DNA of 64,000 bases from Methanobacteriota archaeon (GCA_014240285.1 JAAZXI010000001.1:15593-79592); one strand, 5' to 3'. Shown: positions 58,921 through 64,000, counted from the stretch's first letter. Notes: generated by a model not told the origin, from the letters alone. Program-made: numbers and translations.

Positions 58921-60117
58921 TTACTCCCTCTTGTGCATGTAGCAGTAACCGGACTTACGGTATACCATCCTGCGGCACCTTTTGACATCGCCAATGTGCA
59001 GGCAGTGGGTCTGTGATTTCAGGAAATCTTCCATCTGGGAACTCTTTGAATCGGTATCCTCGACCTTCTCGGTGAAAGCATCGACAACATCCAAAGGCTC
59101 CTCCAATTTCACTCCCTTTTTTTCGGCATGGGTTGTAGATGGAGTGGCGAACTGAAGGGCCCCCATCTCTTTCTTACATTCCTTGCAGACTAGCAAATCC
59201 TCCTTCTCATCTTCGTCGCCGAAAATCAATTCCGCCCCCAGAGCCGCTGGGACGAACCCCGCCTCTCCTGCAGCCCCCTCTGTGACGATAAGGAGGCCAA
59301 TGCCAAGCACTCCTCCTGCCACCACCAATGCCCCACCGCCTAGAGTTTTCACGTATGTCTCGACCGGATCGTCTCCCACGGACCTGCAGGTGGTGCAGAT
59401 GGGGGCCTCACAACCAGCTCTCTGGCAAGTCCAACCAATCGTTTTGTTGAGGCCGCATCGGCTGCAGGCACCTCCCTCAAGACCAGTCTCCGGGGCGGTG
59501 GTAAGGGCGAGAATGCCCCCTCCTATTGCCAATAGTAAGCCTAGGGCCAAGCTACAGAAATTCCCACTCACAGCCCAACCAAGACCGATGAGAAGGATTA
59601 GTGCTCCCGCCCCCCTCCTCATCGTCACCGGCGTGCTTTCGGGGTTTACATGGGCCTCCATCTTCATGGCATTTTCCTTCATCTGCACCCGTCGGAGTTT
59701 CGGCTTGATGCCGTTCAAGGTGTCTAGCTCACCTGCGTCAAACCAGATTGTGGCGCAGTCCCCACAGATGTCTATCTTCACGTCGGGCTCGCTCGCCCGG
59801 TCTTCTGATCCGAATGGTTTGGGTACCGCTATTTCCAACATCATAGAGGGACAAACCGGGCAACTGTGCCCTTCTGGGTGCTTTACTCCCGTGTCCTCTA
59901 TTTTCTCCCGTACTTCGTCTGGGACGACCCCGTGCATCGTCTTGGCCTGTACTGCGAGACCCCAGCATTTGGTGCATACTAACAGATCTACACCATCTAC
60001 TCCCTCGGCTGACTCCACTCTCAGTTTCTTCGAGCACTGGGGGCAGTCGTAGTCACTAGTTGCACTCACATTGGACCAGTTGCGAACCCCCATCATTAGG
60101 CTTAGGGCGGCACACAT
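58921..60117 (-). CDS. membrane protein with multiple zinc-ribbon (CxxC) modules
   Basis: At least eight CxxC pairs flanking a central block of 4-5 TM helices. Confidence 0.45.
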   Translation of the reverse strand: MCAALSLMMGVRNWSNVSATSDYDCPQCSKKLRVESAEGVDGVDLLVCTKCWGLAVQAKTMHGVVPDEVREKIEDTGVKHPEGHSCPVCPSMMLEIAVPKPFGSEDRASEPDVKIDICGDCATIWFDAGELDTLNGIKPKLRRVQMKENAMKMEAHVNPESTPVTMRRGAGALILLIGLGWAVSGNFCSLALGLLLAIGGGILALTTAPETGLEGGACSRCGLNKTIGWTCQRAGCEAPICTTCRSVGDDPVETYVKTLGGGALVVAGGVLGIGLLIVTEGAAGEAGFVPAALGAELIFGDEDEKEDLLVCKECKKEMGALQFATPSTTHAEKKGVKLEEPLDVVDAFTEKVEDTDSKSSQMEDFLKSQTHCLHIGDVKRCRRMVYRKSGYCYMHKRE

Positions 60118-60167
60118 ATGCTCTTGTGCCTGTGAGCGCTCCCAACTGCATGCCTACTGTAGTCAAG

Positions 60168-60635
60168 ATGACAACCAGCGCTGGAGAGATAATGATTGGA
60201 CTGTACACCGAGGACTGCCCTGAGACCACGGGGAACTTCCTCAAGCTCGTCGATGATGGGTTCTACAACGGCCTGCACTTCCACCGCGTAATCAAGGATT
60301 TCATGATTCAAGGAGGGTGCCCTCACTCAAGGGATGCTAACAACGGCCGAGCCGGTACGGGTAGCCCTGGGTGGAAGATTGACTGTGAGCCATCAGCATT
60401 AGCCAAGAGTCATGACAGACCCGGGCTGTTCTCTATGGCGAACGCGGGCCCGAACACGGGTGGATCCCAGTTCTTCCTCACCACCGTGCCCACACCTTGG
60501 CTCGACGGCAACCATGCGGTGTTCGGAGAGGTCATCGAGGGCATGGAGAACGTGTACAGGATAGAGAATTGCGACACCAAACCCGGTGACAGGCCCCACG
60601 ACCCCCAGAAGATAATCAATGTAGAGCGGATATGA
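60168..60635 (+). CDS. ppiB: cyclophilin-type peptidyl-prolyl cis-trans isomerase
   Basis: FHRVIKDFMIQGG…SMANAGPNTGGSQFF. Start taken at the internal ATG at 60168. Confidence 0.85.
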   Translation: MTTSAGEIMIGLYTEDCPETTGNFLKLVDDGFYNGLHFHRVIKDFMIQGGCPHSRDANNGRAGTGSPGWKIDCEPSALAKSHDRPGLFSMANAGPNTGGSQFFLTTVPTPWLDGNHAVFGEVIEGMENVYRIENCDTKPGDRPHDPQKIINVERI

Positions 60636-60717
60636 GATCGCTAATTGATTTCTGCTACCAAACAATACGTTGCATTGCGGCTATATAGTCTGAGTTTATT
60701 AATAACCAATTAACGCG
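60636..60717. promoter_or_regulatory. AT-rich putative promoter (TTTATTAATAA) upstream of the RHH-fumarase gene
   Basis: A TATA-like element lies about 35 nt upstream of the ATG at 60718. Confidence 0.3.
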
Positions 60718-62328
60718 ATGCGAAATATGGCCAAACATCGCGCTGGGGATCGCAGAATAGTCAGTATAAGCATACCAGAAGACCTCGCTAAGAGGCTCGA
60801 TCGCAGAGTAGGCAAGGGCCGAGAGAAGGGCCGTTCCGCAACCATCTCCAGAATGATACAGGACTCGATTGATTCGGAGTCTGAGGAGCGCACGGGACAG
60901 CCAGCAGCAGCAGCTCGTAGCGCTAGGGCGAAACCCGATGCCATCAGGATAGAGAAGGACACGATGGGAGAGGTCGAGGTCCCAGCAGACAGGTATTACG
61001 GGGCTCAGACTGCACGATCCCTAGTCAACTTCGACATCGGGAATGACATCATGCCCCGTTCGGTCGTCCGCGCTTTCGGTGTTCTCAAGCAGGCCGCGGC
61101 CCAGACCAACGTCGATCTTGGCCAGATGGACCCCAACATCGGCTCGTTGATCTCAGCGGCCTGTGACGAGGTCGTCTCTGGCTCTCTTGACGAGCACTTC
61201 CCTCTGAGAATCTGGCAGACAGGCTCGGGCACTCAGACCAACATGAACGCGAATGAGGTGATAGCTAACCGAGCGATAGAAATCTCTGGAGGTGCCGTGG
61301 GCAGCAAGACCCCAGTGCACCCGAATGACCATGTCAACCGGGCCCAGTCGAGCAATGACACCTTCCCAACGGCTATGCACATCGCTGCAGCCGAGGAAAC
61401 ACAACATCGATTGTTGCCCGCAGTACGTCATTTACGAGGTAATCTGGCAAACAAGGCACGGGACTTCAAGAGTACGGTGAAGATTGGTAGGACCCACCTG
61501 ATGGATGCAGTCCCCCTGACCCTAGGGCAGGAGTTCAGCGGGTATGTCTCGATGCTCGACGCCGACATCACACGCATTGAGAGTGCCATGGGAGATTTGC
61601 TTGAACTGGCATTAGGAGGGACCGCCGTCGGGACCGGTCTAAACACACATCCCGAGTTCGCTGACACAGTAGCGGCACACATTGCGGACAACACTGGGAT
61701 GTCTTTTGTCAGTGCTGACAACAAGTTTGCACAGTTGGCAGGTCACGATGCGCTGGTAGCCGCCTCGGGAGCGCTGAACACACTTGCAGCTTCTCTGATG
61801 AAGATAGCCAATGACATCAGATGGCTCGGTTCAGGTCCGAGATGCGGCTTTGGGGAACTCTCACTTCCTGCTAACGAGCCTGGATCAAGCATAATGCCAG
61901 GCAAGGTCAATCCCACTCAGGCAGAGGCGATGACGATGGTCTGCTGCCAGGTTATGGGCAACCACACCGCTATCTCAGTCGGAGGCAGTCAGGGCAATTT
62001 TGAACTCAATGTGTACAAACCGATGATAATTCACAACTTCCTGCACAGTGTGCGCCTGCTTTCGGACACCTGTCGCTCGTTCACGGACAAATGCGTGGTA
62101 GGGCTAGAGGCTAACGAGGACAGAATTGCAACTCATCTAGAGAATTCACTCATGCTGGTAACTGCACTCAATCCTCACATCGGCTATGACAACGCCGCGA
62201 AGATAGCCAAGAATGCACACTCAAAAGGAACCACACTCAGGGAGAGCGCGCTCGAACTCAATCTACTGACAGATGAGCAATTCACCAAGTGGGTCAAGGC
62301 CGAGGACATGATTGGACCACGAGACTGA
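60718..62328 (+). CDS. fumC: class II fumarate hydratase/aspartase-family lyase with N-terminal ribbon-helix-helix extension
   Basis: [16 protein letters not shown] signature and an [22 protein letters not shown] core. It is preceded in frame by about 75 aa ([19 protein letters not shown]…ISRMIQDSI) that looks like a CopG/RHH domain. Confidence 0.75.
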
Positions 62329-62556
62329 AGGAACTGGAAACCCCTAATCGATTATTCAGGAGCGAAACGCTCCGCAAACATTGCAATAAAATCTTGAGGG
62401 CCGATTACAGGTGGGAGCAGGCAGGAGAGGTTCCGCACATGGGGGAGCTTCCCCCCTCCTGTTCTACTCCGCAGGGTCCGGATGTCCCCCGGGCCTCTCG
62501 GCCCGAGTTTCTCCGGGTAGACTCCTCCGGGACCTCTAGTGCCCCTTTGTCGCGTT

Positions 62557-63009
62557 CCGTTTCCTTCCCCTTCCTTGCGTCCAGTTCTCTCCACTTCACT
62601 CATCTTCTCTCTCTAGGGGCGTTTCCCCCCCCTTCGCGTTCTCCGTTTCCTTCCCTTTCCTTCCCCTTCCTTGCGTCCAGTTCTCTCCAGTTCTCTCCAC
62701 GTTCCGATACAGCTTCCTCCACGGATCTCTCCGCCCTTGTCCACTCGTGTTTCCCTCTGCTTCCTTCCCGTTCCTTCCCCTTCCTTGCGTCCGGTTCCCG
62801 TCGGTCTTTCCACTTCGTTCCTCACACCGCTTCCAGGTTCGTTCTCCTCCCCTTTCCACGCATATCTCCTCGGGATAGTACTCTGCCTCGGTTGCGTTTT
62901 CCCCGTTGCCGGTTCGGTTGCGTTTTCCTCAGCTTCCTCCTCCGTTTCCTCCAGTTTCCTTCCCCTTCCTTCCCCTTCCTTTCGTCCAGTTCTCTCCAGT
63001 TCTCTCCAC
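62557..63009. repeat. four irregularly spaced copies of a pyrimidine-rich repeat of about 38 bp (CCGTTTCCTTCCCCTTCCTTGCGTCCAGTTCTCTCCAC)
   Basis: Copies at 62557-62594, 62643-62700, 62768-62797 and 62942-63009, with internal CCTTCC and GTTCTCTCCA micro-duplications. Confidence 0.6.
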
Positions 63010-63270
63010 TCTCGTCCTCTTCGGTTCTCCCGTCGTCTTCCCGCCCATATGGCGTTCCGACTCTTCCCCGATCTCCTTCCGAATCTCGGGTTCCGCCGCC
63101 GCTCTCTCGCGGCTCGGTTTCTGTGGCCCGCGGGTCGCGCCGAGGCGCCCCCACACCACTCCAGAGAAGCGGCAAAGTTGACAGGGACGGGGACGCTACA
63201 TAAACCTTTCTTGAATACAGCCGCAGTCTACTGGAAATAAGGGTCTGGAACAGTTATTTTCCACTGCACC

Positions 63271-64000
63271 TCATGCCTCTCTGAGTTTCCTAAGACGACC
63301 CATCAATCGGCTTCTGCGCTCATCATCCCTGCCCCCATCATCATCTTCCAAGCGCCTAGATAGAACTCTTCCTTCGACTAGGTGGATTCGCCCGCCGGAG
63401 TCTCCCAGAGCGATGTTGCTGCCCGCTGAATCAATGTGCCTGATTCGATGAGCATGCTCAAGCTCTAGAATAGTGCTACCATCCTTAGCGTCTAGGACGA
63501 CGATGCTGGAATCCCCATCGTTCCACCTGGAGGTCCAAATCCCGATGCCTTCGGAATCGGTGGGCCCCAGTGCTAACGATTCCACGGCGCCTAACGCTGA
63601 GACGCCCCAGCCGTGACTTGAGAAGACTTCACCTGAGGCGTGTCCCGAGAACCAGTCGTGTTTGGAGTTGCATATCGCTCGCACTTGAGAAGACCTCTCT
63701 TCACCCGCTGATGCATCAGATCCACTCAATATGCTGACACTGCCATCGGAGTGCCCGATTAGGAACCGTCCATCAGACCCACACACTCCAACAGTCACAG
63801 GACTACTCCCCTCTAGGGTGTGGTGTACTGACTTCTCTCCACTGCGAATCCGGAGGAAACCGCATCGCGGCCTGCCCAGCCCAAGTAACACCCCTCCATC
63901 ATCGTGCAGACCGAAGTGCCATGCGCGCTCGGGGAAGGACCATCGTTGCTGAAGTGAACCTTCGGAGTCGAACATCCATACGGTCGACTCAACATAGTCG
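63271..64000 (-). CDS. WD40-like beta-propeller protein (N-terminus runs off window end)
   Basis: Repeated GHSDGSVSIL-type blades. The reading frame stays open to position 64000. Confidence 0.5.
   Translation of the reverse strand, partial: DYVESTVWMFDSEGSLQQRWSFPERAWHFGLHDDGGVLLGLGRPRCGFLRIRSGEKSVHHTLEGSSPVTVGVCGSDGRFLIGHSDGSVSILSGSDASAGEERSSQVRAICNSKHDWFSGHASGEVFSSHGWGVSALGAVESLALGPTDSEGIGIWTSRWNDGDSSIVVLDAKDGSTILELEHAHRIRHIDSAGSNIALGDSGGRIHLVEGRVLSRRLEDDDGGRDDERRSRLMGRLRKLREA

Follow-up and report, generated by a model that had tools for sequence, protein, structure and literature searches.

A ribbon-helix-helix domain fused to class II fumarase across Marine Group II archaea, with a candidate operator at its own promoter

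Why would a core tricarboxylic acid (TCA) cycle enzyme carry, in a single polypeptide, a domain of a type used to bind DNA? The question arises from one gene in a 64,000-nucleotide stretch of DNA from a Methanobacteriota archaeon (JAAZXI010000001.1, 15593–79592; hereafter the window), where an original prediction made by a model from the sequence had noticed an open reading frame (ORF) joining a ribbon-helix-helix (RHH) domain to a class II fumarate hydratase/aspartase, and had offered two explanations: a true fusion, perhaps a moonlighting or autoregulatory lyase, or a small RHH gene that had lost its stop codon. We find that the RHH-fumarase is a genuine, previously unremarked domain architecture on the theme of the enzyme with an attached DNA-binding domain.

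The ORF is present as described, at positions 60718–62328 on the plus strand, and its single frame of 536 residues encodes an RHH domain of ~48 residues, a linker of ~24 residues and a complete FumC (Table 1). The fumarate-lyase core sets in at RIEKDTMG (nt 60946), and the lack of a nearby start codon remarked on originally is real: no in-frame ATG, GTG or TTG occurs from the ATG of Met43 (nt 60853) to the Met of DTMG (nt 60964), which leaves the enzyme no possible start close to the canonical N-terminus. The start of the ORF itself has to be moved from 60718: translation almost certainly begins at the second ATG, 60727 (MAKHR...), as it does in nearly all homologues. In most related loci an in-frame stop lies at most 7 codons upstream of the MAKH start, and in one of them (L003) a TGA codon directly follows the ATG equivalent to 60718.

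RHH proteins are obligate dimers whose two-stranded antiparallel sheet reads the DNA major groove, and their hallmarks are an N-terminal strand of alternating polar and hydrophobic residues and a G-x-S/T/N cap that opens helix 2. When isolated, the N-terminal domain scored 23.9–24.9 bits against Pfam RHH_1 (PF01402; cutoff 20.5), and 16 of 17 diverse homologues matched RHH_1 above the cutoff (best E = 5.2e-6); within the full-length protein the score was 20.0 bits, marginally under the cutoff. The strand-helix-helix pattern that had been read upstream of the core is recovered by AlphaFold2 (AF2), which predicts residues 1–50 to be structured in this way, with a strand or extended segment at 4–11 (strands at 4–6 and 9–11) and helices at 18–28 and 36–52; the predicted local distance difference test (pLDDT) value was 64 for the domain alone and 54–73 for the same region in the full-length model (mean 76.8). 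The nearest solved sequence, weakly matched, is the RHH domain of Pyrococcus horikoshii NikR (2bj1, E = 0.78), with a sensible alignment (SISIP... / ...NRSEAI). The most conserved parts of the domain are the basic arm KHR.GDRR, the beta-strand and the G-R-S helix cap, the R-I-x-S-I-S-I-P strand and the G35-R36-S37 cap being invariant or at least 90% conserved. Basic arm, alternating strand and helix-2 G-R-S cap are the DNA-contacting residues in characterised RHH proteins. The isoelectric point (pI) of the domain is 11.5, versus 5.6 for the core. Profile matches and structure prediction together support an RHH fold with the hallmarks of the family and membership of the RHH superfamily.

To ask where else this RHH occurs, we ran an exhaustive profile search over 1.84 billion representatives, one per 50% identity cluster. 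Of the 44 matches that it returned, all the ones read proved to be fragments of the RHH-fumarase fusion or parts of it separated by frameshifts, with two exceptions, a weak 85-residue stand-alone protein (P0162) and a long unrelated repeat protein (P0163). Outside fusions with fumarase this RHH subfamily appears not to exist, within a search in which full-length fusions hide behind unfused fumarase cluster representatives and fusions in other lineages could be missed.

The enzyme part matches TIGR00979 (fumC_II) at 779.9 bits (cutoff 664.75), with residues 76–533 covering model positions 1–458 of 458. In Pfam, RHH_1 spans residues 15–49, Lyase_1 84–414 (E = 3.6e-112) and FumaraseC_C 480–532 (E = 1e-24). 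The core aligns over its whole length with fumarases of known structure, such as the E. coli enzyme (1fuo, residues 3–462), and the fumarase signature residues are invariant or nearly so across 121 sequences. Judged by these residues, the core is catalytically intact and an ordinary member of the FumC family; fumarase activity and a homotetrameric state are predicted from orthology. The enzyme had been called a fumarase/aspartase, and its best matches in the PDB, which are fumarases, uphold the first name and not the second. As a candidate identity, aspartase was rejected on scores of at most 419 bits for PDB aspartases versus 597–669 bits for PDB fumarases, and of 489 bits for the aspA equivalog model, under its cutoff of 681. 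One aspartase "subfamily" model (NF008909) passed, at 546 bits versus a cutoff of 510, far under the fumC_II score.

The fusion extends well past the window, which is near-identical to metagenome-assembled genomes of Ca. Thalassarchaeum (L002, L003). From a set of 5.8 billion proteins we collected the 120 best matches, and every one recovered the same architecture: all 120 are 529–545 residues long, cover 99–100% of the query at identities down to 74%, and keep the fused frame. Where names are given, they read Candidatus Thalassarchaeaceae, Thalassarchaeum or Thermoplasmatota "class II fumarate hydratase". Homologues that begin at an internal Met, an outcome named in advance as counting against a fusion, did not emerge. 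Scanning genomes with the first 51 residues as query, we found the RHH domain encoded by 232 GTDB species genomes. All 80 loci retained for analysis belong to the Poseidoniales (Marine Group II, MGII), from both MGIIb (Thalassarchaeaceae) and MGIIa (Poseidonia), and the RHH is in frame with fumC in 80/80. Five of these are not full length, four being cut by a contig end (L021, L026, L028, L078) and one (L077) ending early at 283 residues on a contig that has an N in the promoter. The same RHH-fumarase fusion is carried by a divergent Thermoplasmatota lineage (MGKHNVG.SRIVSVSIPEDVAQELDRW...). The RHH-linker-FumC architecture is fixed across the Poseidoniales and this related lineage.

Selection acts alike on the RHH domain and the core. 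The alignment consists of a highly conserved N-terminal block, a hypervariable stretch of about 24 residues and then the fumarase, and the lengths of the variable stretch differ by whole codons only. The ratio of nonsynonymous to synonymous substitution rates (dN/dS; Nei-Gojobori, 83 locus pairs) was 0.034 for the RHH domain and 0.036 for the core, with mean pairwise identities of 81% and 80%, and 0.263 for the linker, with a mean identity of 26%. AF2 assigned no secondary structure to residues 53–72, with pLDDT <50 at 52–59. Purifying selection on the RHH domain is as strong as on the enzyme, and the linker is relaxed.

A second conserved feature lies in front of the gene. It is an AT-rich, fumC-specific element, TTTATTAATAAC(C/T)AATTAA, located 25–32 nt upstream of the start at 60727; the consensus in other loci is TTTATTAATAA(C/G)TAATTAA. 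The element contains a TATA-like octamer, a perfect palindrome (Table 1) and a second AT box, CAATTAA, 9 bp from the palindrome. The 19-mer is unique in the window even when 3 mismatches are allowed, and it is found with ≤4 mismatches in 58/80 loci and with ≤1 mismatch in 47/80, while the flanking intergenic DNA has diverged and cannot be aligned. Its heptamer, TTATTAA or TTAATAA, has 162 copies in the 635 kb of MGII DNA that we scanned, 152 of them in fumC promoters: 146 lie at −45 to −1 of fumC, covering 81/81 loci, and 6 more at about −58 to −65. Among 137 other AT-rich windows of 45 nt, six had one heptamer and none had two. In the divergent lineage, an inverted repeat, TTAATAAC-N10-GTTATTAA, stands between the TATA position and the ATG, in the layout ATTTAATAAC-N10-GGTTATTAAT-c-ATG; here the same half-site is kept and forms an inverted repeat of 8 bp, which brackets the stretch from the TATA box to the start.

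An alignment of 78 distinct fumC promoters anchored on the ATG places the TATA-like box at −29 to −22 (3 nt further from the ATG in the window) and has a pyrimidine at −1 in 78/78. TATA-to-ATG spacing of this kind is the geometry of archaeal leaderless mRNA, and the spacing together with the −1 pyrimidine suggests that the fumC mRNA is leaderless, with a predicted transcription start at about 60724–60727, downstream of the 60718 ATG. No other ORF of ≥100 residues in the window has a canonical TATA-like octamer suitably spaced in front of it.

Table 1. Features of the RHH-fumarase gene and its promoter (positions in the window; residues numbered from MAKH).
Feature	Position (nt)	Strand	Residues	Basis or remark
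AT-rich promoter / candidate operator TTTATTAATAACCAATTAA	60695..60713	+		unique in window; kept in relatives
TATA-like TTTATTAA	60695-60702	+		part of candidate operator
Perfect 10-bp palindrome TTATTAATAA	60696-60705	+		part of candidate operator
Upstream in-frame ATG and two codons (MRN)	60718..60726	+		probably untranslated; homologues begin MAKH
Ribbon-helix-helix domain	60727..60870	+	1-48	Pfam RHH_1, AF2, dN/dS, pI
RHH sub-parts: basic arm, beta-strand RIVSISIP, helix 1, loop GKGREKG, N-cap RS, helix 2				
Flexible variable linker	60871..60942	+	49-72	low identity, raised dN/dS, AF2
Class II fumarate hydratase (FumC) core and stop codon	60943..62328	+	73-533	TIGR00979, Lyase_1, FumaraseC_C
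First catalytic signature of FumC core	61219-61248	+		
Catalytic signature HPNDHVN of FumC core	61318-61338	+		
SS loop (GSSxMPxKxNP) of FumC core	61882-61914	+	386-396	

What might the domain do? The reading that we favour, while holding the case for it to be evenly balanced, is that the RHH-fumarase is a bifunctional trigger enzyme that represses its own leaderless promoter. Because class II fumarases are homotetramers, the four RHH chains brought together by the enzyme would pair into two RHH dimers, held on flexible linkers in an arrangement like that of NikR. The target of these dimers would be the AT-rich palindromic element (TTTATTAATAA-C-(C/T)AATTAA), which overlaps the TATA box and may in this way act as an operator; binding there would compete with TBP/TFB, such that transcription of the gene is repressed when the enzyme is abundant. 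The protein would then set its own level by a PutA-like logic, and the occupancy of the enzyme by fumarate or malate could possibly modulate the repression. The autoregulatory lyase suggested in the original prediction would fit the evidence.

The same functional, basic and conserved RHH domain could also serve DNA binding of a different scope, with the RHH-fumarase acting mainly on a wider regulon, for instance TCA or respiratory genes, the enzyme being the metabolite sensor, or tethering fumarase to the chromosome for local production of fumarate or malate, as in the DNA-damage response that depends on fumarase. We think this unlikely, if well worth keeping in view. Class II fumarases have a known role in DNA damage: they act in the DNA-damage response of yeast, of human cells and of B. 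subtilis, in which the enzyme is found together with the nucleoid (PMC5711358, PMC6068284). Moreover, the scanned share of any MGII genome is very small. Against a wider regulon stands the result that a position weight matrix built from the 19-mer found nothing convincing outside the fumC sites in the 635 kb, the sole recognisable conserved candidate site being in the gene's own promoter. A metagenome scan for the exact 19-mer yielded, among the matches listed, at least 18 MGII fumC promoters and chance hits in low-GC contigs; the MGII contigs recognised among these matches (at least 18) all had the motif at fumC, in a scan whose blastx filter could not recognise contigs from other regions of MGII genomes. 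Further still, and in our estimate a rather doubtful proposal, the fumarase might be a sensor in which occupancy of the active or allosteric sites by fumarate or malate alters the way the tetramer presents its two RHH dimers and couples TCA flux directly to transcription of a regulon, or a chromatin-tethered enzyme that delivers fumarate or malate at DNA. If true, the chromatin-tethered version would be an archaeal, hard-wired form of the DNA-damage function that fumarase has in eukaryotes and Bacillus.

The metagenome scan also brought up the 19-mer (TTTATTAATAACTAATTAA) in an unrelated setting, as part of a highly conserved, repeated element (...caaaacaaagaaacaacc[19-mer]attaatatttatgaaacag...) on non-MGII contigs of ~45% GC from human-gut and other metagenomes (L087, L088, L091, L097, L100 and ~20 more). 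Its presence in this human-gut element is probably a coincidence.

Several observations weigh against self-repression through the AT-rich element. The invariant heptamer sits exactly at the expected TATA (TBP) position and may be nothing more than the TATA box of this gene, retained by descent; chance palindromes arise easily in pure A/T sequence. Several clades have another sequence in place of the 19-mer's second half (22/80 loci have ≥5 mismatches), and no covariation of the RHH strand with the operator variants was found, the beta-strand being invariant. No additional sites turned up in the 635 kb or among the metagenome matches listed. The promoter of the neighbouring cyclophilin (PPIase) gene has a conserved element of its own, ~15 bp at −37 to −20, so promoter conservation in these genomes alone is no proof of an operator. 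Finally, AF2 confidence for the RHH region is moderate only (pLDDT about 54–78), and Foldseek found no match for the 51-residue model in the PDB.

The canonical TATA position of the heptamer, the conserved elements in other promoters and the lack of covariation of the RHH with the motif's variable half are also what one would expect if the N-terminal domain had an RHH-like fold that does not bind DNA at all, and served as an oligomerisation, stabilisation or protein-interaction module behind a strong TATA box. We regard such a purely structural role as improbable: the features that contact DNA in other RHH proteins are the most conserved parts of this one, the domain is strongly basic, and a TATA-like box of this kind is unusual in the window and not a generic property of its promoters.

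The variable linker, predicted to be disordered and accessible to proteases, raises a further alternative, namely that internal initiation or linker proteolysis frees a fumarase and a small RHH regulator from the one gene. This is very unlikely, given that there is no in-frame start codon between residue 43 and the conserved Met80 in the first core strand, that the promoter geometry points to a leaderless mRNA from the RHH ATG, and that the frame is kept in every locus though a split gene pair would serve equally.

Least of all do we credit an artefact in which a frameshift or lost stop joined a separate RHH gene to fumC, to which we assign next to no chance: frameshifted split versions do occur in long-read assemblies (L201, L202), but these errors split the gene rather than join two, hundreds of independent assemblies, made in many studies and with many technologies, show the same architecture, the RHH dN/dS is as low as that of the enzyme, and the profile search found this RHH subfamily nowhere as a stand-alone copy apart from the weak 85-residue protein. 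With the fusion kept across loci and homologues and the split genes explained by frameshifts, the lost-stop and sequencing-error explanations entertained for the window are refuted, and none of the outcomes that the original prediction had named as refuting a fusion came up.

The two long-read cases are of some interest for the databases. L201 (3001–4594) and L202 (3001–4598), both of the divergent lineage, lie on Pilon-polished contigs of ~500 kb, in which RHH-fumC is split into 2–3 called genes and frameshifts split the neighbouring asparaginase too. These frameshifts gave rise to spurious "stand-alone RHH" proteins of 75–154 residues in protein databases, one such piece being named "ribbon-helix-helix domain-containing protein, partial".

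The surroundings of the gene hold some further features. The PPIase element lies at about 60115–60130, upstream of the cyclophilin ATG at 60150, and occupies the same position in 38 related loci; this promoter has no TATA-like box, its consensus is about CATCGTCATGCTATTGGACT, and C stands at −1 in 36/38 loci. From the PPIase promoter, leaderless transcription combined with non-canonical, gene-specific promoter elements is suggested for MGII. On the minus strand, positions 58921–60117 encode a 398-residue protein that contains several zinc-ribbon-like CxxC motifs as well as hydrophobic segments rich in glycine; its match to Zn_ribbon_TFIIB was sub-threshold and gave no family assignment. Downstream, a spacer of ~940 bp (62330–63270) lies between fumC and the next gene, whose 3′ ends converge on it, and contains 4 dispersed copies (at ~62549, 62645, 62759 and 62954) of a CT-rich unit of ~50 nt with the core CCTTCCTT(G/T)CGTCC(A/G)GTTC. 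The 19-mer core of this CT-rich unit recurs on the same strand, in 1–6 copies, downstream of fumC in 25 fetched MGIIb loci (including L001-L016, L027, L041, L054, L057, L072 and L076), 200–1000 nt past the fumC stop. Copy number and spacing differ even among close relatives, there is no consistent reading frame, and the repeat spacer has no Rfam or Pfam match; the units look like a conserved non-coding repeat array or RNA. A search of Rfam over 60000–64000 found no RNA family.

How did so widespread a fusion go unnoticed? Precomputed Pfam annotation of the homologues lists only the lyase domains PF00206 and PF10415 in 120/120, and the RHH falls just under the gathering threshold in its full-length context (20.0 vs 20.5), so that domain-architecture databases are blind to the fusion and it went unremarked. 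In public annotation the RHH-fumarase is a plain "class II fumarate hydratase". In the literature that we searched, no paper linked RHH with fumarase or with MGII, and a survey devoted to archaeal fusion proteins names fumarase only for class I subunits.

The architecture is of interest on several counts. Trigger enzymes are few, and the textbook cases with a covalently attached DNA-binding domain are PutA, BirA, NadR and RbkR; a core TCA-cycle enzyme with an RHH domain is undescribed in the literature searched. Marine Group II comprises uncultured archaea that rank with the most abundant of the surface ocean, and a fusion fixed in a whole order of abundant marine archaea has ecological reach. 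With one protein and one promoter of ~35 bp, it offers a cloneable way into MGII gene regulation. The fusion might also connect to the puzzling, recurrent association of class II fumarases with DNA transactions.

Compared with known systems, the RHH-fumarase combines familiar parts in an unfamiliar way. Canonical FumC and fumarate hydratase structures (E. coli 1fuo, human 5upp and 6n1m) are full-length orthologues of the enzyme part, with the signature motifs intact, and the PDB matches begin at query residue ≥54, mostly at 61–74; we know of no solved or described fumarase with a DNA-binding domain. NikR shares the plan of an N-terminal RHH followed by a C-terminal tetramerising domain, and places two RHH dimers per tetramer on a two-part palindromic operator. 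Unlike NikR, which has a small ACT-like metal sensor at its C-terminus, the RHH-fumarase ends in a 460-residue enzyme and has no nickel ligands. Membership of the NikR family was considered and rejected, with NCBIfam NikR models scoring 13–15 bits (E 0.02–0.09) versus cutoffs of 83–175.

PutA of E. coli and Salmonella is the classic enzyme with an N-terminal RHH, and it represses its own regulon. Here too an N-terminal RHH is fused to an enzyme of central metabolism in one chain, and the expected logic, by analogy, would be that of an enzyme repressing its own promoter. PutA, however, has PRODH and P5CDH domains, whereas only Lyase_1 and FumaraseC_C were found here beside the RHH, and the promoter is of the archaeal TBP/TFB type; we detected no sequence relationship beyond the RHH superfamily and no evidence here of a substrate- or membrane-driven switch as in PutA, which makes PutA an analogue and the RHH-fumarase not a member of its family. 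A comparison from within the Archaea is RbkR, a bifunctional riboflavin kinase and transcription regulator that was found by comparative genomics and validated experimentally (PMC5397151). RbkR has a winged-helix domain and a different enzyme, and the RHH-fumarase is known from sequence alone; like RbkR, it is an archaeal enzyme fused to a predicted DNA-binding domain and was recognised through comparative genomics, with candidate operators in the promoters of its own pathway.

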